NCBI GenBank assembly: GCA_964586735.1
Contig: CAZPIN010000125.1
Coordinates: forward strand, 563-64,562
DNA length: 64,000 nt
Direction of reading: 5' to 3'
DNA from: an uncultured Rhodobacterales bacterium
GTDB taxonomy: Bacteria > Pseudomonadota > Alphaproteobacteria > Rhodobacterales > CAZPXZ01
The position numbers and the translations under genes were made by a program. The notes under the pieces are model-generated. The model ran no database searches. It was not told where the DNA came from and saw nothing but the letters and a program-made list of their open reading frames with translations. Below are positions 18,494 to 60,925 of the stretch, one piece after another; within the stretch, counting starts at the first letter, position 1, and the number at the start of each line of letters is the position of its first letter.

Positions 18494-18801
18494 GGGTTGC
18501 CTCTGACCTCGGCGGCGCCGCGGACGGGCGTCGCTCGCGGCGCTCTTTGCTACCGCGCCCTGTACCCAAGGTAGTGCAAAACCACGCATGATTCCGCGCG
18601 CATGCCTTGCCGGAGGCTTCCGACATAGCCGGCCGCCGCGGTTTGGCAATGCTGGATTGCCGCAGAGTGCCTGTCCAGTCTGCCGCTTGCCAAAGCCGCA
18701 TACCGCCTTAAGGGGCAAACGCAGGTACTGGCTACGATGAATTGGCGCCAGTCAAGACTACACTGTTCCGGCGAAAGCGACTCGCGCGTTTCGGGACTGC
18801 C

Positions 18802-19110
18802 TCACACAGGCGCTCCGTTCCCCCAGCTCCCGTTGCCTTTCATCGCCTCGTCGATGCTGGGCGCCCTCAACAGCCGGATCCGCCAGCTGTCCAGATCCTC
18901 CTCCGACGCCGCCCGCAGCCGTTCATCCAGATCGTCTGGAACCTCGCCGAAACGCTCTTGGGCAATACCTAAGAGTACCTCGACTTTGCCTTCCGCCCAG
19001 CCTTTCGCTAGGCCCCGAGCCTCGCCCCGAGCCTCGCGTTCCGCAAGCAGACCCGGGGACAGCTGCTCTATCGCCATGTCCATCATCTCTTTACCTCTCT
19101 CGTTTCCCAA
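18802..19110 (-). CDS. Stand-alone DUF4351-like C-terminal-domain ORF (copy of the C-terminus of the upstream Rpn-like gene)
   Basis: It aligns end to end with the last ~100 aa of 19174..20232 ('GNERGKEMMDMAIEQLSPG...RFGEVPDDLDERLRAASEEDLDSW...EAMKGNGSWGNGAPV'). It is in the same frame as the upstream gene and is offset from it by 348 nt. Confidence 0.6.
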   Translation of the reverse strand: MGNERGKEMMDMAIEQLSPGLLAEREARGEARGLAKGWAEGKVEVLLGIAQERFGEVPDDLDERLRAASEEDLDSWRIRLLRAPSIDEAMKGNGSWGNGAPV

Positions 19111-19173
19111 AGCCTCAAGCGCCAGGCGGCGGCACCGCTCCGGCGGGAGCGCCTCAGGCGATTCGGGGCCACC

Positions 19174-20232
19174 TCACACTGGCGTCCCGTTTCCCCAGCT
19201 CCCGTTGCCTTTCATCGCCTCATCGATGTTGGGCGCGTCCAGCACCCGGTCCAGCCAGTCGTCGAGCTTCTCCTCAGACGCCGCTAGAAGCTGCGCCTCC
19301 AGATCACTCGGCTCTACGCCGAAACGCTTCCGGACAACGCGCAAGATCGACTCGACTTTGACTTCCGCCCGGCCCTCCGCCCGGACTTCAGCAAGCCGAC
19401 CCGGGGACAGCTGCTCTATCGCTATGTCCATCATCTCTTTACCTCTCTTGTTTCCCAAAGCCTCAAGCGCCAGGCGGCGGCACCGCGCATTGTCCTTCAG
19501 GCCGTTGACGATGTTAACAGCAATCGCCGTGCCTTTCAACTGCAGCTCCTCCATGATGTACCGATAGGCAAAGCCATACAGATCCCGTATCAGACCGTCG
19601 GTAACGTCCTTGCGGTTCTCCAGCCCAATCGCCACCAGCAGCGCCCAGAAATCGGGGTTCGCGTACAGCCTTTCCAAGGGTATCTCTCCCAGCAGAAGCA
19701 AATGCGTCGGCCCCATGCTGAAAAAGCCGCCCTCGAAGCCCATTGCCTTCAGTATCTCCTCGACGGTCGGCGGGACTCTGTCAGCGGCGGGGCCATGTAC
19801 CACCAGCCCCGCCAGCATCAGTATGGTCTTGCCTTCAAACGGGCCCTTCGGCCTGGACAGGTCTTCCGCCGCCAAGGCCGCATTGGCGCTAAGCTGCATC
19901 CGCGCCATCCGCTCGTAGTTGTGCTTGTGCTCCAAGACAGCGGCGAGGACAGCCTCGTCTGAAAGGTCGCCGACGAGGAGACCGTCCAGCTCCCGTCGCC
20001 GGCCGCCTTTGGTGATGACCGTACCGGACAGGAGCCGGACATTGTACAGTCGGCTGACCCGCGCTTTCGCCACCTCGACGATCATCCACATCAGCCCGCA
20101 AATGGACCCGGAGTCGCCGGTTGCGATGCGGAACGACGTGTCGTAGGGATGATGCTCGAAGTCCACCCTGAATGGAGGAGGGGACTCCTCCGGGCCTTGC
20201 GGCGATTCAGCGGGTTGTATTCTGATGGTCAT
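19174..20232 (-). CDS. Rpn/YhgA-like PD-(D/E)XK nuclease family protein with DUF4351-like C-terminal domain (paralog A)
   Basis: N-terminal 'HHPYDTSFRI' resembles the Rpn 'HDxxFK' motif. 'RELDGLLVGD...AAVLEHKHNYERMARMQL' resembles the Rpn 'D...hhhEhQS' nuclease core, with K in place of Q. The C-terminal 'RAEGRAEVKVESILRVVRKRFGVEPSDLEAQLLAASEEKLDDWLDRVL' has the DUF4351 pattern. Confidence 0.7.
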   Translation of the reverse strand: MTIRIQPAESPQGPEESPPPFRVDFEHHPYDTSFRIATGDSGSICGLMWMIVEVAKARVSRLYNVRLLSGTVITKGGRRRELDGLLVGDLSDEAVLAAVLEHKHNYERMARMQLSANAALAAEDLSRPKGPFEGKTILMLAGLVVHGPAADRVPPTVEEILKAMGFEGGFFSMGPTHLLLLGEIPLERLYANPDFWALLVAIGLENRKDVTDGLIRDLYGFAYRYIMEELQLKGTAIAVNIVNGLKDNARCRRLALEALGNKRGKEMMDIAIEQLSPGRLAEVRAEGRAEVKVESILRVVRKRFGVEPSDLEAQLLAASEEKLDDWLDRVLDAPNIDEAMKGNGSWGNGTPV

Positions 20233-20235
20233 TGG

Positions 20236-20604
20236 GAGTCTCCTCGTCCGGCTGCGAATCGGCGGAGTGCCGACTCTGGCAGCGAGGCAAATCTTCGTAC
20301 AGCTTCTGAGTCGATGTCAAATCGCGGCTAGAAAATTTTCACTAACACCTTGCCGGCAAAGGGCAAACTGCCGCAGCGCGTTGTTTTTAAGACCGTCTAA
20401 AAAGAGCGCCGAAACGGCACCTTCCCCGATTCGCGGGTGGAGGGTGCGAGGTGATTCGCTGCTGCCCGCGAGGCGATTCGCCGCCGCCCGGAGTGATTCG
20501 CCAAGGGTGATTCGCTGCTGGCCTGTGTCCATGGCGCGAGGTGATTCGCCGCTGCCCGAGGGGTGATTCGCTCGCCACCCGCAATCCTTCGCAGAGCGAT
20601 TCGC
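20236..20604 (+). repeat. Intergenic GANTC-dense region. Its core holds 8 same-strand copies of GATTCGC within degenerate ~22-bp units (gag-gtGATTCGCyGCTGCCCG)
   Basis: GATTCGC starts at 20428, 20453, 20475, 20495, 20509, 20543, 20565 and 20598. Additional GANTC sites lie at 20236 (GAGTC), 20256 (GAATC), 20272 (GACTC) and 20308 (GAGTC). Confidence 0.85.
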
Positions 20605-20685
20605 CGCTGTCAAGGGGCACCCCGCCCCCGGCTCCGGTCGCCAGAGCGTACCAGTCTGCCTGCTGCCGTTTCGTACAAATTGAAG

Positions 20686-21050: not shown

Positions 21051-21079
21051 TTGACGTTCCTGCCGTTGTTTGCCATATT
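21051..21079 (+). promoter_or_regulatory. Candidate sigma70-type promoter of rpsB-tsf
   Basis: TTGACG-N17-CATATT, about 110 nt upstream of the rpsB start. Confidence 0.35.
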
Positions 21080-21189
21080 GCCTCCATTCCACACGCAGGC
21101 AACGGGACGGCTGCGCCTGCGCCGCCGTCCCTCCGGTTGTCCGGCCGCTGGCCGGATCGCGCCTGCGGAGGCAGAAACCGGAGGGTAAC

Positions 21190-22812
21190 TTGAACATTCC
21201 GCATTTCACCATGCGCCAGCTGCTGGAGGCTGGCGTGCATTTCGGCCATCGCACCGACCGCTGGAACCCCAAGATGGCCCAGTACATCTACGGGGCGCGA
21301 GGCGGCATCCACATCATCGACCTGACCCAGACCGTGCCTCTGCTGCACCAGGCGCTGGTGGCCATCCACCAGTGCGTGGCCAAGGGCGGCCGGCTGCTGA
21401 TGGTTGCCACCAAGCCCCAGGCTCGGGAGCCCATCCGTCAGGCGGCGGTGAGCGGCCAGCAGTTTTACATCAACAACCGCTGGCTGGGCGGCACGCTGAC
21501 CAACTGGAAGACCGTCTCGGCCTCGATCAACCGGCTGGTCGACCTGGAGAAGACGCTCGACAACCACGAGGCGGGGTTTTCCAAGAAGGAGCGCCTGCAG
21601 CTGGAGCGGCAGCGCGACAAGGTGGAGCTGGCCCTTGGCGGCATCCGCAACATGGGCACGCTGCCGGACATGCTGTTCGTGGTCGACGTCAACGAGAAGC
21701 GCATCGCCGTGGCGGAGGCTCGCAAGATCGGCATACCGGTGGTGGCCATCGTCGACACCAACTCCGACCCCACCGGCATCGACTACCCCATTCCCGGCAA
21801 CGACGACGCCACGCGGGCGGTAAGCCTGTACTGCGACCTCATCCTTGGCACGCTGATCGACGCTCTCGAAGTGCAGCTTGGCAGCCAGATGGAGGATCCT
21901 GGCGAGGCCAACGCGCCGGCGGGCGAGGCGGCGCTGAAGGAGGCGGCGGCTTCGGCTGGCGCCGATTCGCCGGCTGCCGCGGAGGAGGCTGTTGCCCAGT
22001 CGGCGGCTTCTCCGGTCGCGACGGCCGCTGTCGGCGCCGCGTCTCCACCAGCCGCGCCCGAGGTGTCTGCCGCCGCCGCAGCCGTGTCGCCGGTCGCGCC
22101 CGCTCCAGCGGATGCGCCCGCGCAGTTTGCGGCTGAGCCGGTTTCTGCTCCCGCGCCTGCAGCGCCTGTCGCATCGCCACCTGCAGTGGAGGCTCCAGCG
22201 GCCCCATCTCCCGCAGCGTCTCCAGCGGCCGAAGTCCCCGCGGCTGCGCCGCCAGCGGTTGAGCCGCCCCCGGCTCCCGCGCCTGCAGCGCCTGTCGCAT
22301 CGCCAACTGCAGTGGAGGATCCGGCGACCCCATCTCCCGCAGCGTCTCAAGCGGCCGAAGTTCCCGCGGCTGCGCCGCCAGCGGTTGAGCTGGTACCAGC
22401 CCCCGCGCCAGAAGCGCCCGTCACATCGCCACCCGCAGTGGAAGCCCCAGCGGTCCCATTTCACGCAGCGTCTCCAGCGGCCGAAGTCCCCGTGGCTGCG
22501 CCGCCAATGGTCGAGGCGGTACCAGCCTCCACGCCGGAAATGCCTTCCGCCGCACCGTCGACAGTGGAGGCTCCGGTGGTTCCATCTCCCGATTCGTCTA
22601 CTGCAGTTGAGGTTCCAGCGGCTCCATCTCCCTCTCCGTCTCCTGTGGTCGAAACCCCCGTGGCAGCGCCGCCAGCGGTGGAGTCCCAGTCGGCCACAGC
22701 GCCCGTCGGCGGCGTCGCGGACCCTGTGCAGTCGCCAGCCGCCGCGCCCGCTGCAGAGGAGGCGGCGCCGTCGCCAGCAACGGACGGCACCGCCGGGGAG
22801 GCATCCCAGTGA
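21190..22812 (+). CDS. rpsB: 30S ribosomal protein S2 with a ~290-aa Ala/Pro-rich repetitive C-terminal extension
   Basis: '[24 protein letters not shown]...' is the canonical S2 core. The start is TTG at 21190 after RBS 'ggaggg', or ATG at 21211. The tail begins near aa 260. Confidence 0.9.
22147..22690 (+). repeat. 126-bp (42-codon) tandem repeat, ~4 copies, inside the rpsB tail
   Basis: The string 'gctcccgcgcctgcagcgcctgtcgcatcgcca' recurs at 22147 and 22273. Diverged copies begin near 22399 and 22525. The peptide unit is '[38 protein letters not shown]..'. Confidence 0.85.
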
Positions 22813-35505: not shown

Positions 35506-35845
35506 GACAGCCGCCTGAATCTGGCGACGCCATTCTGTAGCCCCTTGGCTTGCAGGCATCTTCCGGCCGCTCAAAGAGCGGCATTTGGCATGGACAGTCC
35601 CCGCATCCGAAGCGGTCCGCGCGTCGGGGAGATTGCTCGCTATGGTGAGGTCAAGCTGGAATTGGCCCTCGGTTTCGAGATGCGTCCGAGGGAATTGCAT
35701 CTGACCTTCGTCACGGCGCATCGAGTACAGTCAGGTGCCTCCAGCTCCGCCGCGGCGTGCGCCGAGTGGACTGGGAGTTCCACCCGAAACCAGCCAGAAA
35801 CCGCCGCTGGCCGAGTCCAGAGGCGGGAGAAAGGAGAAAGCCAAA

Positions 35846-36904
35846 ATGGCCTACCCGATGGGAGAGCAGCCGCGCCAGAATCAGGGCGGCGAAGAGACCA
35901 CTGAGACCGAGCGGCTGGAGGCATGGATGCAGGGCTGGCCGAGCCAGTTCTACGACGGCTACAGCTTCAGGATACTCAGCAACATGGAAACAGCGTTGGC
36001 GGTCATCGTTTACGCCGTGCGAAAAGCCGGAAAGCACAGGCTTGCAAAGAAGCTGGAGGGAGGCTCGCTGGTAATGGCTCCCACTCGCCTGGTCGGTGAA
36101 ACCCTGCGCCAGAGATACCGCGACCTTTCGTACAGGTGGAAGCCCAAAAGAAAAGGTTCTAACGAGATTCGGATTGACATTGAGGCCACCAGTGGCTCCG
36201 ACCAGCTGGTCACGGTCCGCTCGACGGACTACTCGGTTCAGGGAGCGTTGCAGGAGGCAGCTTCGCAGAAGAGGGTCAGCCGCCGCGCCCCCGGATTCAC
36301 GATGGTCATCAATTTCGGCCCCAGGGGTCTTCGGGTGTCCTGCGTGTTCGAGGAGATGTTTTCGGACTACGACGAGCTTGAGGGGCTCGGGCCTCGCAAC
36401 ATAACTGTCCAGCTGGACCTTATGGCGATGACGCTTGAGGAAATCCTTGCGGCATTCGACTGCCGTACCGCGTGTGTCCTTGGGATACTCCGCATCGCCA
36501 ACAGGCCGCGGGAGTTTCGCAAGGCGGACATTTTCAGGGTGATCAAACTGGCGGCGGGGGACTGGGAGCGCGAGCAGATGGTCGCTCTCTGCATTGCATG
36601 CCGGTTCAAGGGAGTGTACTATAGGTGGGCGCTGCAGGCGCTGGACGAAGCAGGAATAGGGAGAGACAACGTGGAAGGCATGATGGAAATCCGGGAACGG
36701 GAGGCCAAGGCCGAGGGCGTGGCCGATGTGCTGCTGCGGCAAGTACGGGAGAAGTTCAAGGACATATCTGACCGGAGGGAGGCGCAGGTGCGGTCAGCTA
36801 CGCTTGAGCAGCTGGAGGAGTGGGCGGTGCGCCTTCTGCATGCCCGCGACATCGATGCGCTGTTCGCCGGAAGCGGCCGGGCTAGGAGCCAGCCTCAGGG
36901 ATAG
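35846..36904 (+). CDS. Divergent Rpn-like family protein with DUF4351-like C-terminal domain (paralog B)
   Basis: The ATG at 35846 follows RBS 'aaaggagaaag'. The C-terminal 'REREAKAEGVADVLLRQVREKFKDISDRREAQVRSATLEQLEEWAVRLLHARDIDALF' has the DUF4351 pattern. 'FYDGYSFRIL' resembles the Rpn N-terminal motif, but the nuclease core motif is not clear. Confidence 0.55.
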   Translation: MAYPMGEQPRQNQGGEETTETERLEAWMQGWPSQFYDGYSFRILSNMETALAVIVYAVRKAGKHRLAKKLEGGSLVMAPTRLVGETLRQRYRDLSYRWKPKRKGSNEIRIDIEATSGSDQLVTVRSTDYSVQGALQEAASQKRVSRRAPGFTMVINFGPRGLRVSCVFEEMFSDYDELEGLGPRNITVQLDLMAMTLEEILAAFDCRTACVLGILRIANRPREFRKADIFRVIKLAAGDWEREQMVALCIACRFKGVYYRWALQALDEAGIGRDNVEGMMEIREREAKAEGVADVLLRQVREKFKDISDRREAQVRSATLEQLEEWAVRLLHARDIDALFAGSGRARSQPQG

Positions 36905-37000
36905 CCGTCGGCGGCTTGGCTGCGGTAGCGGCGACTTACTCTCTCCTGCTGCTCTGGGCAGCGGCCGACGCTGGACGAGGCAGGAATTGGGAGAGACAAC

Positions 37001-37234
37001 GTGGAAGGCATGATGGAAATCCGAGAACGGGAGGCCAAGGCCGAGGGCAAGGCCGAGTTGCTGCTCCAACTTGTACGGCAGAAGTTCAAGGACATATCCG
37101 ACCGGAGGGAGGCACAGGTGAAGTCGGCCTCGCTTGAGCAGCTGGAGAATTGGGCGGCGCGTCTGCTGAGCCCTCGCGATCTCGATTCGCTGTTTGGCGG
37201 GAGTGGCCGGGCAAAGCGCCAGCCGCAGGGGTAG
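37001..37234 (+). CDS. Stand-alone DUF4351-like C-terminal-domain ORF (copy of the paralog B C-terminus)
   Basis: 'EGMMEIREREAKAEGKAELLLQLVRQKFKDISDRREAQVKSASLEQLENWAARLL' closely matches the last 77 aa of 35846..36904. It is offset by 330 nt and is in the same frame. Confidence 0.55.
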   Translation: MEGMMEIREREAKAEGKAELLLQLVRQKFKDISDRREAQVKSASLEQLENWAARLLSPRDLDSLFGGSGRAKRQPQG

Positions 37235-37517: not shown

Positions 37518-38624
37518 ATGGCAAAGAAAATCAAGATCAGGAAATACAGGCCACCGAGGCTTTCCGCGTCGCACTACACCAGGTATGCGTTTGAGCAGCT
37601 GATCACTGGGTATTCGGACGAGCCTGCAGAGCGCTCGTCCCTCGTCCGTACCGCTACCCGTCTTCTTATCGAGGAAGCCTTGGAGGAGGAGGCCAAGGAT
37701 GTCATGGGCCGCGGCTATTACCAGCATGGAGGCGCGAATGGAGGGGGATACCGCAACGGCACCCGCATATGCCGCCTCAAGTCCGCCAGCAGCGTCATCG
37801 AATACGGTGCGCCGCAGATTACCGGCAGAGAGGGGGGATTCAGCTCCGGAATCCGGAGGCATCTCAAGAAGCGCGGTGAAGTGGCCGAGAGTCTGGCGAT
37901 GCACATTCTGGCCCGCGGCTGCACCGCCCGCGAAGTCAACTGCTCCTTCACCGGCGAGGACGGAAAGCCGCTTCTTTCGCGAGCCGCGGTGAAGCGGCTA
38001 GCCGAGCGGCTGCAGGAGGACTACAGCAACTTTTCCACCCGCGAACTGTACCGGTACAAGGTTGCCTATCTTGTCTTCTGCCCTGTCATCGAACGGCGAC
38101 ATCCGGGCAAAAAGAAGGAACGAGTCATGGCAGCTTGGGGGAGTATCGAAACGGAAAGATGGCGATACGTCGAAAAGGGAAAGAAAGTTCTGCTTGGGCT
38201 CATGGCCAGCGCAAAGGAGGACGAGGAGACCGTAACCGGCTTCTTCCAGGACATGCGTTCCCGCGGTCTCGCTGACCCTGTGATGGTGCTTGCCGACGGC
38301 GCGCCAGGAATTACCAAGGCGATCGAGGCATGCTTTCCAGACGCGGTGCGGCAGCGCAGACTGGTTAATAGGTATCGCGCTCTGGAATCCAAAGTGCCGA
38401 AGAGCGTTTGGCCAGAGTTCGAAACGCGGGTGAAGGCCGCCTATCAGGCTCCCGGCAGGTTCCTGTCCCGCGACCTGGCCAAAGAGGTGGAGAGGGACTT
38501 CGAGGGGAAGCATCCAGAAGCGGTAGCCTGCTTTCTGGACGATTTCGACGCGTGCAATGCGTATCTTCGCATGCCGGTCGACCATCGCCAAGAGATTGAA
38601 AACGTCAACCTGTTCGCGTGGTAG
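37518..38624 (+). mobile_element. IS256/Mutator-family transposase-like gene, degenerate (probably inactive)
   Basis: 'VMVLADGAPGITKAIEACFPDAVRQRRLVNRYRALESKVPKS' parallels IS256 'SDgh.Gl..ai...fp.a.wQRC.vH..RN'. Conserved residues are replaced: the first Asp region is 'YLVFCPV', and C->R, H->N. The ORF stops at 'IENVNLFAW', where 'irTTN.iE' continues in intact members. I found no inverted repeats. Confidence 0.65.
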
Positions 38625-45652: not shown

Positions 45653-47206
45653 CTAACGGTCGGGGGCTGCGGCCGCCAGCTGCGCCGCCCGCCGCAGCGC
45701 CAGGCCGAGCTCTGTCAATGGTTGCGGCTGGGCTTCGGCCGCCAGCTGCGCCGCCCGCCGCAGCGCCCAGGACTTCTGGATGGTCTCCTGAAGTTCAAAC
45801 TCGGGATCCGAATCGTGTACCACGCCGCCGCCGGCCTGGATGTGCATGCGACCGTCCTTGAACACGGCGGTGCGCAGGGCGATGCAGGTGTCCATGTCGC
45901 CCGAAGAGGAAAAGTAGCCCAGCGCGCCGGCGTAGACGCCCCGCTTGAGCGACTCGAGCTCGTCGATGATCTCCATTGCCCGGATCTTGGGAGCGCCGGA
46001 CACGGTGCCGGCGGGCAGGGCGGCCAGCAGCGCGTCGAGGGCGGTGAGGTCGTCGCGCAGGTTGCCCTCTACGTTGGAGACGATGTGCATGACATGGCTG
46101 TAGCGTTCGACCGTAAACTCCTCGGTGGGGCGCACCGTGCCCACCTTGGCGACCCGTCCGACGTCGTTGCGCCCCAGATCGAGCAGCATCAGATGCTCGG
46201 CGCGCTCTTTGGGGTCGGCCAGCAGCTCCTCTTCCAGCTGCCGGTCCTCCTCGGCGGTTGCGCCGCGGGGGCGGGTGCCGGCGATGGGCCGCAGCGTGAT
46301 CCTGCGGTCGCGGCAGCGCACCAGAATCTCCGGGCTGGCGCCGGCCACCTGAAAGCCGCCAAACTCGAAGTAGAACATGTACGGCGAGGGGTTGGTGCGG
46401 CGCAGCGCCCGGTACAGGTCGAAGGGCGAATGGGGGAAGTCGATGCTCCACCGCTGGCTTGGCACCACCTGGAAGATGTCGCCGGCGCGGATGTACTCCT
46501 TGGCGCGCAGCACAGTCTCGCGGAACGTCTCCGGCGCCGTCTGCGCCTCGAACTCCAGCTGCTGGCCATCGCCGTCGCGGGCGCGGGGCAGGGCAAGAGG
46601 GGACTCGAGCTTCCCTAGCGCGCTCTCCAGCCTGCCATGCGCCTCCTGCCAGGCGGATTCGGCGTCCACCTCGGGATCGTGCCAGGCCGGCGCGCACAGC
46701 ATGGTCTCGTCGCGGACGCTGTCGATGATGGCCAGCAGGCCGGGGCGAAGCAGCAGCGCGTCGGGCAGGCCAAGGGGATCCTCGTTGGGCGGCGGCAGCC
46801 GCTCGATCAGGCGCGCCATGTCGTAGCCGAGATAGCCGAACAGTCCCGCCGCCATCGGCGGAGCGCCCTCGGGCAGGTCCATGGCGCACGAGTCCAGCAG
46901 CGCACGGAGGTTTTCCAGCGGAGGAGCCGATTCTGGCCTGAAGTCGCCATCCGCCACGGCCGTCTCCGCCTGTCCGCCGCGGCAGCGCCAGACGAGATCG
47001 GGGGCGACGCCAACCACCGAGTAGCGTCCGCGGGTTTCGCCGCCGGTGACCGATTCGAGGAGGAACGCGCTGTCCTCGCCGCGGGCGAGCCGCAGGTACA
47101 GCGAAACCGGCGTGTCGAGGTCCGAGCTCACGTCCAGCCGCAGCAGCTGGCTGCGGCCTTCCCGCCAGCCGCGGGCGAAGGTCTCGGCATCAGGTGTAAC
47201 GCGCAT
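45653..47206 (-). CDS. trpE: Anthranilate synthase component I
   Basis: 'LLESV', 'GAPKIRAMEIIDELE', 'RGVYAGALGYF'. The ATG at 47206 ('MRVTPDAETF') is the likely start. Confidence 0.95.
   Translation of the reverse strand: MRVTPDAETFARGWREGRSQLLRLDVSSDLDTPVSLYLRLARGEDSAFLLESVTGGETRGRYSVVGVAPDLVWRCRGGQAETAVADGDFRPESAPPLENLRALLDSCAMDLPEGAPPMAAGLFGYLGYDMARLIERLPPPNEDPLGLPDALLLRPGLLAIIDSVRDETMLCAPAWHDPEVDAESAWQEAHGRLESALGKLESPLALPRARDGDGQQLEFEAQTAPETFRETVLRAKEYIRAGDIFQVVPSQRWSIDFPHSPFDLYRALRRTNPSPYMFYFEFGGFQVAGASPEILVRCRDRRITLRPIAGTRPRGATAEEDRQLEEELLADPKERAEHLMLLDLGRNDVGRVAKVGTVRPTEEFTVERYSHVMHIVSNVEGNLRDDLTALDALLAALPAGTVSGAPKIRAMEIIDELESLKRGVYAGALGYFSSSGDMDTCIALRTAVFKDGRMHIQAGGGVVHDSDPEFELQETIQKSWALRRAAQLAAEAQPQPLTELGLALRRAAQLAAAAPDR
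45671..45767 (+). repeat. 31-bp perfect direct repeat (two copies, 35-bp spacer) in the 3' end of trpE
   Basis: 'ggccgccagctgcgccgcccgccgcagcgcc' occurs at 45671-45701 and 45737-45767. It encodes a duplicated 'ALRRAAQLAA' in the TrpE C-terminus. Confidence 0.9.
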
Positions 47207-47306
47207 CGTCAAGGAGCGTCGGTTCGGCGGTTGTACGTCCGTCAGATAGAGGATGGGGCGGGCCGCCAGCGGCAAGCGTTACGTGCGTGTACAAGGCACG
47301 GCCTGG

Positions 47307-47687
47307 CTAGCTCGCTACCCGCTTCCGGCGTGGGGACCGGGCGGTAACTTCATTGAGGGCAGGGTCGCTGTCGGTGTCGTCGTCGAACACCGCGTTGATA
47401 CTGCTGGCCGTGAGTATCCGGCACAGCCAGGTGTCAATTTGCTGCTTCGAAGCGGTGCGCACCTGCGCCTGCCTGTCTTCGGGCACGCTCCCATACTTGC
47501 TCGTTGCCAGCATCAGGAAGTTCTCGAACTTGGCCTTGGCCCAGCCCTTATCCCATCCCTCGGACCAGTACTCGCCCCAGTCCTCGGCCACGCCCCTAGC
47601 CATGGTTTGCTTCCAGTCTTCGGCCCGAAGCGCCTCTAACGACGTGTCCATAATCTCCTCATTTGCCTTCGGTGCCGCAACACCCAC
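47307..47687 (-). CDS. DUF4351-like C-terminal-domain ORF (single module)
   Basis: 'EEIMD...WSEGWDKGWAKAKFENFLMLATSKYGSVPEDRQAQVRTASKQQIDTWLCRILTASSINAVF'. It has a GTG start. The N-terminal 'MGVAAP' is shared with 48160..48726. Confidence 0.5.
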   Translation of the reverse strand: MGVAAPKANEEIMDTSLEALRAEDWKQTMARGVAEDWGEYWSEGWDKGWAKAKFENFLMLATSKYGSVPEDRQAQVRTASKQQIDTWLCRILTASSINAVFDDDTDSDPALNEVTARSPRRKRVAS

Positions 47688-47825
47688 CGTTCACCCTCTT
47701 GAGGCAAACGCACGAAACGCCATGCCCGGCGATACGTGCCAACAGAACATACAGTTTTAGTTCTTCGTGTAAAACTTCGGCCTCCTGAACGGATTGGCAA
47801 TGTCCTCGTCATAAGAGGGGGCGGT
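47688..47825 (-). pseudogene. Remnant of the central part of an Rpn-like paralog
   Basis: Bases 47709-47822 align at DNA level with 49081-49194 of paralog C ('...YTKN' followed by an in-frame TAA where paralog C has Gln). Confidence 0.5.
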
Positions 47826-48059
47826 CGCCTGCCCGCCGCGGCGGCGCCAGGCGATTTCGGAGCGGCGCCGGTCACCAAGTAGCATCGGTGCGCTTTGCCT
47901 TCGGTGACCGATTCGAGAAAGAGCGTCATGTCCTCAATGGGGGAGCGCCTCAGGAACAGCGAAACCGGCGTGTCGATGTCCGGTCCTGCATTCAGGCGAA
48001 GCAGCTGGGTGCGACCCTCCTGCCAGCCGCGAAGTCTCGGCACCAGAGGCAACGCGCGT
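47826..48059 (-). pseudogene. Duplicated 5' fragment of trpE (about 75 codons) with its start codon destroyed
   Basis: 'RGWQEGRTQLLRLNAGPDIDTPVSLFLRR...FLESVTEGKAHRCYLVTGAAP' aligns with TrpE 'RGWREGRSQLLRLDVSSDLDTPVSLYLRL...LLESVTGGETRGRYSVVGVAP'. The ATG has become ACG (plus-strand 'cgt' at 48057-48059 versus 'cat' at 47204-47206), and there is a small indel. Confidence 0.75.
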
Positions 48060-48159
48060 CGCCAAGGAAACGTGGTCAGGCAGTCGTTCGTCTGTCTGGC
48101 TTTAGCTGGAACGGACCGCCGACGGCAAGCGCCAAACGGGTGCCCAAGACATGGCCAGT

Positions 48160-48726
48160 CTACTTGGCCGTACGCTTCAGCGGTGGTGACTTGACGGGAA
48201 CATCATTGACGGCGTGGCCGTTGCCTGCGTCTTCGTCAAACACCGCATTGAGACTTGTAGCAGTGAGTATCCGGGGTAGCCAGTATTCAATCTGCGGTAC
48301 CGAAGAGGCGCGCACCAGTTCCTCTATGTGACCTGGCACTCGCCGATACTTGCTCCTTGCCAGTATCAGGAAGTCCTCGGCCTTGGCTTCGGACCTGGCC
48401 TTGGCCTCGTTCTGGGTCATGCCCCTGTCATCGTCGAACACCAGGCTGAGACTGGGAGCCCTGAGAACCCGGAGCAGCCAGTTGTCAAGCTGCGGTATCC
48501 AAGCGGAGCGTACCTGCGCCTCTCTGTCCTCCGGCACTCGACCAAACTTGCTCCTCGCCAGCATCAGGAAGTCCTCGGTTTTGGCCGTGGCCTCGGCCTG
48601 TTCCATGCCATCGTCTGCGACTACCTCATAGGCTACGGCCATAATCTCTTCGACCAACGGCTTCGATGCCACTTTGTCCGACGTCTCCATGGTCTCCTCC
48701 ATCACTTCCGGTCCTGCGACGCCCAT
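48160..48726 (-). CDS. ORF made of two tandem DUF4351-like modules
   Basis: Module 1 is 'TEDFLMLARSKFGRVPEDREAQVRSAWIPQLDNWLLRVLRAPSLSLVF'. Module 2 is 'AEDFLILARSKYRRVPGHIEELVRASSVPQIEYWLPRILTATSLNAVF'. Confidence 0.5.
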   Translation of the reverse strand: MGVAGPEVMEETMETSDKVASKPLVEEIMAVAYEVVADDGMEQAEATAKTEDFLMLARSKFGRVPEDREAQVRSAWIPQLDNWLLRVLRAPSLSLVFDDDRGMTQNEAKARSEAKAEDFLILARSKYRRVPGHIEELVRASSVPQIEYWLPRILTATSLNAVFDEDAGNGHAVNDVPVKSPPLKRTAK

Positions 48727-48803
48727 AATCGCTGTCGGGCAACTACGGCAGTCTCAGCGATTCTGTGCTTACCCTCAGCACGGCTGCCAGTTCGCAGAAC
48801 CAT

Positions 48804-49910
48804 CTAGTCGGTGCGCTTGCCGCTGCCGTTGAACACCGCCTCGATGTCGGGCGCGGCATACAGGCGATCAAGCCAGTCATCGACCTGCTCCTGCGAAGCG
48901 TTGCGCACCTGGTCTGCCAAATGGTCAGGGACGCTCTGAAACCGCCTTTCGGCAGCCCGCAGAAATGTCACACTTCGGCCTTCGGCCAGACCTTCGGCCC
49001 AAAACATCTCGAATGACGGGTCCATAATCTCCTCCACCATGTCCTGTCCCAGAACGTTCGCAATCGCCTTCTCGATTCGAACGCGCGAAACGCCTTGCTC
49101 GGCGAGTGCACCTACAGCATACTGCCTCTGGTTCTTCGTGTAAAGCCCGAGCCCCTCTGCAATATATTCAAGGTCCTTGTCACTCAGCGGCGGTCCGTCA
49201 CGGGTTCCCCTTGCAACCAGCAGCGGCGCACCCGCCGCCGCGTTCTTGGTGAGTTCCTGCCGGCGAAGGTTCCCCAGGTAGAAGTGGACGACCTTCTCCG
49301 CCGTCAGCGTTTCCGCCTTTTCCTCGGGTGTCAGTTTCGCCAGCTCGGCCAGAGATTTCGGGCGGGTCTGCGTCGCCTTCCCGTTCAGTACAATAACGCC
49401 ATTGAGGATTGGCACTTCGCCCCATGTCGTTACTCCATCTTCCACCAGCTGGCGGGTAAGACGGAACGCGGAGCTGACCACCTGAAGCTCGGCCAGCTTC
49501 GTCTTGTCCGACTTGTGCTCATAGGCGCTGACCACGGGCCTCCCGTCGGTGTGCTTTGCCAGCAGGCCCAAATCGGCCTCGTCGATGAGGAAGTCTCCGC
49601 CCTCAACGCGAGTGGGAAGCGGGCGGGGATGAAAATTCCTGTCGAGATTCCGGTAGACCACACCCGCCAGCGTGAGGCGAAGCAGCTCCCAAAGGGTATC
49701 GGGGAAATTGGCGAGCCAGCGGATGTTGGCATCCCACGGGTGGGCCCTTCTCCTTGGTGGCTTCTCTGTTCCAGCCTGTTCCTGCTCCGGCTGGTTCGAC
49801 TCGTGTGTCTGTTCTGGCATGGCCATGCCTCCTCTGTCTGGGGTGACGCTTGGCATCGCCGCCCGGCGAATCACTCCGCCGCCGCGGCCATGCTCGTTTG
49901 TGCAGTCCAC
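48804..49910 (-). CDS. Rpn/YhgA-like PD-(D/E)XK nuclease family protein with DUF4351-like C-terminal domain (paralog C)
   Basis: 'HPWDANIRWLANFPDTLWELL' is an Rpn-like N-terminal motif. 'DEADLGLLAKHTDGRPVVSAYEHKSDKTKLAELQV' fits the D...EhK core. The C-terminus reads 'WAEGLAEGRSVTFLRAAERRFQSVPDHLADQVRNASQEQVDDWLDRLYAAPDIEAVF'. Confidence 0.7.
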   Translation of the reverse strand: MDCTNEHGRGGGVIRRAAMPSVTPDRGGMAMPEQTHESNQPEQEQAGTEKPPRRRAHPWDANIRWLANFPDTLWELLRLTLAGVVYRNLDRNFHPRPLPTRVEGGDFLIDEADLGLLAKHTDGRPVVSAYEHKSDKTKLAELQVVSSAFRLTRQLVEDGVTTWGEVPILNGVIVLNGKATQTRPKSLAELAKLTPEEKAETLTAEKVVHFYLGNLRRQELTKNAAAGAPLLVARGTRDGPPLSDKDLEYIAEGLGLYTKNQRQYAVGALAEQGVSRVRIEKAIANVLGQDMVEEIMDPSFEMFWAEGLAEGRSVTFLRAAERRFQSVPDHLADQVRNASQEQVDDWLDRLYAAPDIEAVFNGSGKRTD

Positions 49911-59878: not shown

Positions 59879-60925
59879 ATGCTTCTGTTTCTCGCCAGAC
59901 GACTGGGCGTGATGGCCCTGACCGTCCTCTGCCTTTCTGCGGTGGTTTTCTTCCTGACAAACCTGCATCCCAATCTTGAGAAGCTGGCGAAGACCCAGGG
60001 AAACAACCGCATGACCGACGCGCAGGTGGTCACCTGGCTGGAGAACCACGGCTACGCCCGGCCCTGGATCGTGCGCTACGGCGAATGGCTGGGACTCGCC
60101 CCGGGCTGGCAGCACGTCGACTCGGATGGAGTAGTGAGCGGGCGGTGCATACGGCTTGGCGCGCCCGCCGTCGAGGAAAACCAATACTGCGGCGTACTGC
60201 AGGGTACCTTTGGGTGGTCGACGGTGTTCAGGGAAACCGTCGGCGAGGTGATTCTGCGCAAGCTGGGACTGACCGGCATCCTCATGTGGTGGGTGATGGT
60301 GGTCATGGTGCCCACCGCCCTGGTGGTTGGCGTCATGGCGGGCATGCGCGAAGGCACCCGGCTCGACCGCTCGCTGTCCACCTTCTCGATCGCCACGACG
60401 GCGACGCCCGAGTACGTGTCGGGCGTCATCATGATCGTGGTGTTTTCCAGCTCGATCGTCGGCCTCAAGTGGTTCAAGGGGTCGGCGGCCTCGGCCATGG
60501 ACGAGGTCACCTTCGTCAACTTCACGCTGCCGGTCATGACCATGGCGCTCTACGGCATGGGCTACATCGCCCGCATGAGCCGCGCCTCCATGGCGGAGGT
60601 CATGACCGCGCAGTACATCCGCACCGCCCGGCTCAAGGGCGTCAAGTTCAGCAGCGTCGTGATTCGCCACGCGCTGCGCAACGCCCTGATCGCTCCGTTT
60701 ACGGTGATCATGCTCCAGTTTCCGTGGCTGCTCACCGGGGTGGTGATCGTCGAAACGCTTTTCAACTACAAGGGATTCGGCTGGACTCTGGTGCAGGCGG
60801 CGACTGGCAACGACGTCGAGCTGCTGCTGGGATGCTCGGTGGTGGCCGTTATCGTGGTGCTGGTAACGCAGCTGATTTCGGACGTAGGCTACGTCTACCT
60901 CAATCCGCGAATCAGGGTGACCTGA
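59879..60925 (+). CDS. ABC transporter permease (DppB/OppB-like)
   Basis: Multi-TM protein with the EAA-loop region 'YIRTARLKGVKFSSVVIRHALRNAL'. Confidence 0.9.
   Translation: MLLFLARRLGVMALTVLCLSAVVFFLTNLHPNLEKLAKTQGNNRMTDAQVVTWLENHGYARPWIVRYGEWLGLAPGWQHVDSDGVVSGRCIRLGAPAVEENQYCGVLQGTFGWSTVFRETVGEVILRKLGLTGILMWWVMVVMVPTALVVGVMAGMREGTRLDRSLSTFSIATTATPEYVSGVIMIVVFSSSIVGLKWFKGSAASAMDEVTFVNFTLPVMTMALYGMGYIARMSRASMAEVMTAQYIRTARLKGVKFSSVVIRHALRNALIAPFTVIMLQFPWLLTGVVIVETLFNYKGFGWTLVQAATGNDVELLLGCSVVAVIVVLVTQLISDVGYVYLNPRIRVT

Follow-up and report, generated by a model that had tools for sequence, protein, structure and literature searches.

What is a short open reading frame (ORF) that lies in frame directly behind the stop codon of a larger gene and resembles that gene's C-terminal module? 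The question arises in a 64,000-nucleotide stretch of DNA (the window) from an uncultured Rhodobacterales bacterium (assembly GCA_964586735.1, contig CAZPIN010000125.1, positions 563 to 64,562 of the forward strand), where such an ORF, here termed the orphan, follows its parent gene on the minus strand at a site referred to as locus A. The arrangement is probably an Rpn nuclease gene-within-gene accompanied by a downstream spare copy of its small gene, that is, the RpnL/RpnS/RpnSs layout. The evidence consists of homology, conserved motifs, the anatomy of a tandem duplication, a difference in repeat number and a segment-wise pattern of substitution; by analogy with characterised systems, both small proteins would be translated, the small protein would bind in the manner of an antitoxin, the nuclease would be toxic, and the locus would serve in defence.

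The rpn (recombination-promoting nuclease) genes are genes-within-genes in which the full-length product, RpnL, is a toxic DNA endonuclease, while RpnS, the C-terminal domain translated alone from an internal start, binds RpnL and blocks it (PMC10400941, Zhong et al. 2023, PNAS). Folded as a three-helix bundle, RpnS has a variable count of 4-aa repeats in its first helix; as a criterion of the family, this tract begins 8-20 residues after the start Met, and in E. coli RpnC a mismatch of a single repeat abolishes neutralisation (PMC10400941). A separate second copy of the small gene, rpnSs, annotated as DUF4351, is found downstream of some parents, such as ypaA after rpnE and, in some strains, a copy after rpnC. 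The N-domain can also occur fused to the rpnSs region, and YpaA is translated in E. coli (PMC10400941). RpnL toxicity, DNA cleavage, blocking by RpnS and protection against phage have been shown for E. coli and plasmid systems alone (PMC10400941).

The parent gene of locus A appears to encode a divergent member of this family. When a profile of only the four-member locus A clade was searched against 1.84 billion representatives, it retrieved 1922 proteins, the full-length matches among which carry PF04754 and PF14261. Aligned with nine Pfam-certified Rpn proteins, the same profile gives an hhalign probability of 99.93% (E 1.5e-35, 312 columns), and the alignment extends through the DUF4351 domain. 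PYD31TSFR of the parent pairs with PHDALFR of the family, ELD83 with an invariant Asp and E101-H-K103 with EHK, Q113 also being aligned; D31, D83 and E101-H-K103 match the invariant D14, D66 and E86-x-K of the certified members. An AlphaFold2 (AF2) model of the parent, with a predicted local distance difference test (pLDDT) score of 79, shows an alpha/beta core and, behind it, a helical C-terminal domain, with the putative catalytic residues on adjacent strands, and its best, weak Foldseek matches in the PDB are PD-(D/E)XK nucleases (NucC, Card1/Can2 and restriction enzymes). With these motifs present, the parent is apparently catalytically intact. Close relatives in public databases amount to a handful (P0002-P0004, P0008 and P0009), and about one third of the best 150 profile matches are free-standing single or double modules. 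The clade is too divergent for Pfam, NCBIfam or PADLOC to name: NCBIfam returned no family for any of the seven proteins searched, and profiles A1 and A4, run against PDB sequences, returned either nothing or spurious matches.

The orphan is best described, from its sequence, as a tandemly duplicated and predicted separately translated copy of the parent's C-terminal domain. The parent terminates in ...EAMKGNGSWGNGTPV and its stop (also written ...IDEAMKGNGSWGNGTPV-TGA), and its frame runs on with no further stop as GGPESPEALPPERCRRLALEALGNERGKEMMD... into the orphan, which ends in ...EAMKGNGSWGNGAPV and a stop (also written ...IDEAMKGNGSWGNGAPV-TGA); the open, in-frame continuation described in the initial annotation is thus present in the sequence. 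The duplication itself, also proposed there, lies far beyond chance, as the two copies align by blastn at 75.7% identity over 378 nt (E 2.4e-77; tblastn E 4.7e-37). Their offset, given earlier as 348 nt (116 codons), has that value at the 5' end (19486 to 19138) but is 372 nt at the stops (19174 to 18802), because the orphan contains 24 extra nt, corresponding to two 12-nt repeat units.

Pairwise alignment revealed not uniform divergence but conservation at both ends of the duplicated unit. A 5' block of ~100 nt has only 4 mismatches (19488-19387 versus 19140-19039), the central part (~150/174 nt) falls to 65-75% identity with a net insertion of 24 nt in the orphan, and the 3' block, comprising the last 20 codons and the stop, recovers to ~90% identity (6 mismatches in 63 nt, four of the six synonymous). 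Past the stop, the flank continues for ~35 nt at ~70% identity. The mosaic with a diverged middle therefore stands in the gapped alignment, although its most identical block lies on the 5' side, which had not been stressed, and the near-identity ascribed to the 3' end was slightly overstated. Parent and orphan proteins differ in length by exactly 8 aa, equal to two 4-aa (12-nt) repeats, a type of variation that is the hallmark of the family. In the codon alignment, three A-x-x-x units of the parent (AEVR AEGR AEVK) face five in the orphan (AERE ARGE ARGL AKGW AEGK), the tract starting 14 residues after the Met. Repeat numbers vary in relatives as well, with further expansion in P0002 and P0157, the latter containing three GIAKGEAR units.

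Several features indicate that the orphan is predicted to be a live gene with a start site of its own. The mechanical ORF spans 18802-19110 on the minus strand and opens with a TTG at 19110, which the initial annotation adopted as the start. This codon is probably not the true start; the ATG at 19086, which is the start in the public gene call and has a Shine-Dalgarno (SD) sequence 7 nt upstream, is preferred. The SD of the orphan, GAGAGG at 19094-19099, and the whole SD-ATG context (19099-19081) are identical to an internal site of the parent, where Met268 is invariant in 7/7 aligned homologues, certified Rpn proteins included, and small free-standing homologues begin at the profile position of this residue. 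The internal SD-ATG of the parent should accordingly also yield its C-terminal ~85 aa alone, as an RpnS-type protein. The GC content of the orphan by codon position is coding-like (0.73/0.46/0.73), its tail evolves at a ratio of nonsynonymous to synonymous divergence (dN/dS) of ~0.1, and free-standing homologues in other genomes (P0157 and P0015, on other contigs) are 72-86% identical to it. Its AF2 model consists of a 36-residue helix and two short helices. With respect to transcription, two sigma-70-like matches were found just 5' of the duplicated unit, where 0.3 would be expected in shuffled sequences, and a search for a terminator-like site between parent and orphan returned none; co-transcription of the two is the simplest reading because there is no such terminator between them and the candidate promoter lies 5' of the unit. 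The coordinates of these features are given in Table 1.

Table 1. Features of locus A and of the two paralogous loci in the window.
Feature	Coordinates	Strand	Basis or remark
Parent gene, apparently a divergent Rpn-family protein (YhgA-like PD-(D/E)XK nuclease and DUF4351), RpnL-type	19174-20232	-	ORF, 352 aa
Orphan, predicted free-standing DUF4351 small protein, RpnSs-type, 94 aa	18802-19086	-	Public gene call P0010 identical
Internal ATG-ATG (M267/M268), predicted start of the C-terminal small protein, RpnS-type, ~85 aa	19429-19434	-	Sequence
Shine-Dalgarno-like GAGAGG, 7 nt 5' of the parent's internal ATG	19442-19447	-	Sequence
Two overlapping sigma-70-like promoter matches inside the parent, just 5' of the duplicated unit (candidate internal promoter)	19489-19539	-	Consensus match
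Duplication copy 1: last 103 parent codons, stop and ~35 nt of 3' flank; 348 nt	19139-19486	-	Pairwise alignment
Duplication copy 2, holding the orphan; ~372 nt, 24 nt longer than copy 1	18765-19138	-	Pairwise alignment
Tandem repeat of 12 nt (2.2 perfect copies; EARG-EARG at the protein level) within the 4-aa tract of the orphan's helix 1	19012-19037	-	TRF
Conserved tail PSIDEAMKGNGSWGNGAPV of the orphan	18805-18861	-	Parent equivalent 19177-19233; dN 0.046 versus dS 0.44
Locus B: Rpn-like parent P0006 (35843-36904) and downstream free-standing module (37001-37234), 330-nt tandem unit	35843-37234	+	
Locus C: Rpn-like parent (48804-49910), fused double module (48160-48726), trpE 5' fragment (47636-48052) and single module (47307-47687)	47307-49910	-	

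The conservation of the two ends has different causes. Segment-wise synonymous (dS) and nonsynonymous (dN) divergence between parent and orphan was estimated by the Nei-Gojobori method for the 5' 34 codons (dS 0.04, dN 0.07), the core (dS 0.53, dN 0.40; dN/dS ~0.6-0.75) and the last 19 codons (dS 0.44, dN 0.046). Silent sites of the 3' tail have diverged as those of the core have, while its replacement sites have hardly changed (Fisher p = 0.0003). The motif IDEAMKGNGSWGNG (19177-19218 in the parent, 18805-18846 in the orphan) occurs in every clade member, full-length or small, and is kept in orthologues whose N-domains are only 36-60% identical; the tail as a whole is conserved in P0002, P0003, P0004, P0008, P0009, P0011, P0012, P0015 and P0157. 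Because silent sites diverged as in the core, replacement sites were conserved and the motif was kept clade-wide, the tail is under strong purifying selection at the protein level, in agreement with the selection on the extreme C-terminus put forward earlier. Gene conversion, the other force invoked for this pattern, was rejected for the 3' end, where the synonymous divergence of 0.44 matches the 0.53 of the core, and is plausible for the 5' block. There, silent sites are nearly unchanged relative to the core (Fisher p = 0.002) and the conserved sequence takes in ~50 nt that do not code for protein in the orphan, which indicates that gene conversion maintains these ~100 nt and/or that the initiation region is constrained at the nucleotide level. 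Locus B has the same 5' polarity, with dS rising from 0.17 to 0.51 and then 0.80, and so does rpnE/ypaA. Segment-wise substitution analysis can in this way tell apart two forces that a dot plot does not distinguish, namely purifying selection on the tail and homogenisation, at the nucleotide level, of the initiation region and of the first part of helix 1.

As an observation in its own right, the Gly/Asn/Trp-rich tail IDEAMKGNGSWGNG is specific to this clade, has not been described for other Rpn proteins and is a candidate degron or partner-binding peptide. It is predicted to be disordered (pLDDT <50 in the parent and orphan models).

The proposed history and mode of action of locus A can be outlined as follows. 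The 352-aa RpnL-type product would combine an N-terminal PD-(D/E)XK nuclease domain with a C-terminal helical DUF4351 domain, and the internal SD-ATG (19447-19432) would give rise to an RpnS-type protein of ~85 aa; in characterised systems, such a small protein blocks the nuclease. A tandem duplication of ~350 nt, reaching from ~50 nt 5' of the internal start to ~35 nt past the stop, would have produced the orphan (18802-19086), which is most likely co-transcribed with the parent and translated from its own copy of the SD-ATG rather than by read-through. During subsequent divergence, helix 1 of the orphan would have gained two 12-nt (4-aa) units, and the core of helices 2-3 would have changed at both synonymous and non-synonymous sites, while the disordered tail stayed under purifying selection and the 5' ~100 nt, which span the initiation region and the beginning of helix 1, would have been kept nearly identical by conversion and/or nucleotide constraint.

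This layout has already been described for rpnE-ypaA of E. coli, of which locus A appears to be a further and highly divergent example; neither the family (Rpn / DUF4351) nor this precedent had been recognised in the initial annotation. The E. coli pairs rpnE-ypaA (rpnE_Ss) and rpnC-rpnC_Ss share with it a PD-(D/E)XK N-domain joined to a DUF4351 C-domain, an internal SD-ATG at the domain boundary, a downstream tandem copy that begins just 5' of the SD and includes the stop, copies that differ in helix 1 by complete 4-aa (12-nt) repeats, and homogenisation of the 5' part with divergence of the distal part; in rpnE-ypaA, the small gene likewise lies in frame behind the parent stop. When re-derived here, ypaA proved to be a 183-nt tandem unit starting from the SD; it has an additional 12-nt repeat (KLEG) and directly continues the reading frame of rpnE past its stop without meeting another, and the 5' two-thirds of the pair are homogenised (dS 0.15 versus 1.39 distally). 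In rpnC-rpnCSs, also re-derived, conserved ends flank a divergent repeat tract, and the copy is out of frame. The differences are equally clear. Proteins of the window are very distant from the E. coli Rpns, the link requiring intermediate profiles; the unit at locus A is longer than that of ypaA (348-372 nt versus 183 nt) and includes ~50 nt 5' of the start; the clade has the conserved tail IDEAMKGNGSWGNG under purifying selection; and the 64 kb contain three such loci, surrounded by housekeeping genes and known here from sequence alone, one of which has a fused double module.

Other known systems offer partial parallels. Free-standing DUF4351 (PF14261) proteins are, like the orphan, small and helical, with many single-module homologues of 74-130 aa and double-module homologues of 145-260 aa, but the orphan scores 16.9 bits against a threshold of 25, and its origin can be traced to the adjacent parent. 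In type II toxin-antitoxin modules, as would be the case at locus A, a small protein neutralises a toxic nuclease of the same locus; the antitoxin at locus A, however, would copy the toxin's own domain, once intragenically and again downstream, instead of being an unrelated upstream gene.

Two paralogous loci in the window are also available, so that three parallel loci within one 64-kb stretch can be compared. At locus B, DUF4351 scores above the Pfam cutoff (27 and 34 bits), and the parent matches PF04754 (Transposase_31, YhgA-like) at E 9e-4 and Rpn profiles at 97.9%. This parent is probably catalytically inactive, like E. coli RpnE, having lost the Lys of ExK (IEAT) and the N-terminal H-D motif; its downstream small-gene copy is well conserved (84% nucleotide identity). 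The parent of locus C aligns with certified Rpn proteins at an hhalign probability of 99.94%. Locus C also encodes the fused double DUF4351 protein, the naturally fused module that had been pointed out earlier and is indeed present, with 188 aa (176 aa in the public call, P0025). Two-module proteins of 145-260 aa make up ~25 of the best 150 database matches, and some longer proteins contain 3-4 modules. The ORF at 47636-48052 on the minus strand is a duplicated N-terminal fragment of trpE (45653-47275), to which it is 56% identical over 59 aa (E 1e-17); as it sits between the double and single modules, the duplication at locus C would have copied a module together with the start of the neighbouring trpE.

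Among the alternatives, programmed read-through of the TGA at 19176-19174, which would yield a nuclease of ~470 aa with two tandem C-terminal modules and a junction peptide ...GNGTPV-X-GGPESPEALPPER, is very improbable. It draws on the in-frame and open junction of locus A, on the same arrangement with a single stop in E. coli rpnE-ypaA and on the natural occurrence of fused double modules, such as that at 48160-48726. However, when loci B and C and the two E. coli pairs were checked, in-frame placement was rejected as a conserved feature: locus A and rpnE-ypaA are in frame and open, locus B is in frame with a second stop, and both junctions of locus C and that of E. coli rpnC-rpnCSs fall out of frame and contain many stops. 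Three of six comparable junctions are therefore in frame where chance would give two of six (binomial P (>=3) ~0.32). Furthermore, only 13 new codons had to be free of stops at locus A, the remaining open stretch being mostly inherited coding sequence, and the orphan possesses an SD-ATG that matches the parent's internal start site exactly. A recoding signal in the spacer was considered and rejected, as the fold of the 106-nt spacer RNA is no better than that of shuffled sequences (z = -1.27), giving no sign of a stimulatory structure; no Rfam family matched at locus A. Read-through as the way in which the module is used, as the initial annotation envisaged, is thus not supported, given the orphan's own SD-ATG, the junction frames and the unremarkable fold of the spacer; it might take place at trace level, and nothing supports it as the mechanism. 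That the orphan is instead a decaying, non-functional by-product of tandem duplication is improbable, if less so. Such a pseudogene would be consistent with the high dN/dS of the core (~0.6-0.75), the lack of a promoter of its own within the duplicated unit, a repeat number mismatched to the parent and the annotation of E. coli ypaA as a pseudogene in RefSeq, but it accords poorly with an ORF, SD and ATG that are all intact despite a dS of ~0.5 since duplication, with the tail dN/dS of ~0.1 and coding-like codon-position GC, with the retention of free-standing homologues at 72-86% identity in other genomes and with the translation of YpaA in E. coli (PMC10400941). In genome annotation, small ORFs of this kind should neither be dropped as pseudogenes nor be put down to read-through.

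A third possibility, unlikely if less so than the other two, is that the orphan acts mainly as a donor or alternative C-terminal module in a recombination cassette, through which the specificity domain of the nuclease would be swapped together with that of the intragenic antitoxin, either by recombination between the homogenised 5' blocks or by gene conversion in the stretch bounded by the conserved 5' and 3' blocks. In the same vein, there is a modest chance that the tandem free-standing modules are standby specificity cassettes, with a divergent core, made up of the repeat tract and helices 2-3 and bearing the W-x-D-R or W-x-I-R signature, lying between a conversion-homogenised 5' block and a selection-conserved tail. 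If true, this would resemble silent-cassette or hsdS shuffling systems in its diversification of a defence nuclease. Across the 61 residues of the core, compared at the protein level, the orphan is closer to the C-terminus of P0002 (75% identity) than to its own parent (64%); it shares 79% with the small protein P0015 and 72% with the small proteins P0157 and P0012, while parent and P0002 are 60% identical in their N-domains and 52% in their C-cores. The helix-3 signature W-x-I-R-x-L-R-A-P-S-I is found in the orphan, the P0002 C-terminus, P0157, P0012 and P0015, and W-x-D-R... takes its place in the window parent, P0003, P0004 and P0011; P0012 combines both types in a mosaic. P0157, which lies on a contig equal in length (35,499 bp) to that of P0003, repeats the pattern of the window, with the 5' peptide of its presumed parent, expanded repeats, a W-x-I-R core and the conserved tail, and divergent cores between conserved blocks occur in three independent pairs. 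Orthologue P0002 joins a module of the orphan type to an N-domain of the parent type and would be one product of such a swap. Nevertheless, the trees are built on 61 columns and have modest bootstraps (55-79), the relatives are compared as proteins so that exchange junctions are not seen in DNA (scans of genomes and metagenome contigs found no DNA of the relatives), and a switch of the deletion type would be irreversible. The pattern suggests that the parent/orphan pair is old, having undergone partial conversion repeatedly and fusion on occasion. An exchange of modules is compatible with, and not exclusive of, an antitoxin role, and the repeat mismatch together with the apparently exchanged module types provides a testable handle on whether rpnSs serves as an extra antitoxin or as a recombination reservoir.

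The assignment of locus A to the Rpn gene-within-gene layout has to be set against a number of observations that weigh against it. The orphan has five repeats and the parent three, and because a mismatch of one repeat abolished neutralisation in RpnC, the orphan may not inhibit its own parent. Loci A, B and C all lie among housekeeping genes, with no recognisable defence island, and PADLOC gave no match for any of the seven proteins. On Pfam, DUF4351 remains below the gathering score of 25 bits at locus A (18.6 bits in the parent, 16.9 bits in the orphan), and direct searches with Pfam hmmscan and NCBIfam did not assign the parent to PF04754. The hhalign comparison of the clade profile with the single sequence of E. 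coli RpnE was insignificant; the link to the family needed a profile of certified members. A Foldseek search with the orphan model failed to recover the crystal structure of RpnA-S (7TH0), a three-helix bundle dimer. Even so, the Rpn layout with a spare small-gene copy is the probable explanation, and it would extend an "antitoxin within toxin plus downstream spare copy" organisation, documented mainly in E. coli, to a new clade.

With regard to genomic context, the three loci are insertions among housekeeping genes: korA/korB and rpsB-tsf flank locus A, lpxB borders locus B on one side and an IS256 transposase remnant next to gltA on the other, and locus C sits between trpE and a ppiD-like gene. 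Together with a match to the small RNA Cis52 elsewhere in the window, these neighbouring genes hint at an alphaproteobacterial origin. The IS256-family transposase ORF (37518-38624, plus strand; E 9.5e-42, just below the NCBIfam cutoff), located directly 3' of locus B, is probably a remnant.

Upstream of the parent gene of locus A, an array at 20440-20610 comprises at least 5 copies of GGTGATTCGC[C/T]GC[C/T]GCCC (CGAATCRCC on the minus strand) at a spacing of 22-34 nt. On the minus strand, the GGTGATTCGC array also precedes a terminator-like hairpin (20421-20405). Its 9-mer occurs 16 times in the window versus 2.4 expected, including one copy in the spacer between parent and orphan (19157-19165), and the array may be an element similar to repetitive extragenic palindromic (REP) sequences or an array of binding sites.

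In the adjacent rpsB (ribosomal protein S2; 21070-22812, plus strand), an Ala/Pro-rich repetitive C-terminal extension of ~300 aa is present, and the product matches the NCBIfam model "S2, sunset domain variant" below the cutoff of the model. Elsewhere in the window, positions 60502-60680 on the minus strand give a full-length Rfam match to the small RNA Cis52 (RF02647; 96.5 bits, E 3e-17), an RNA first described in Ruegeria.

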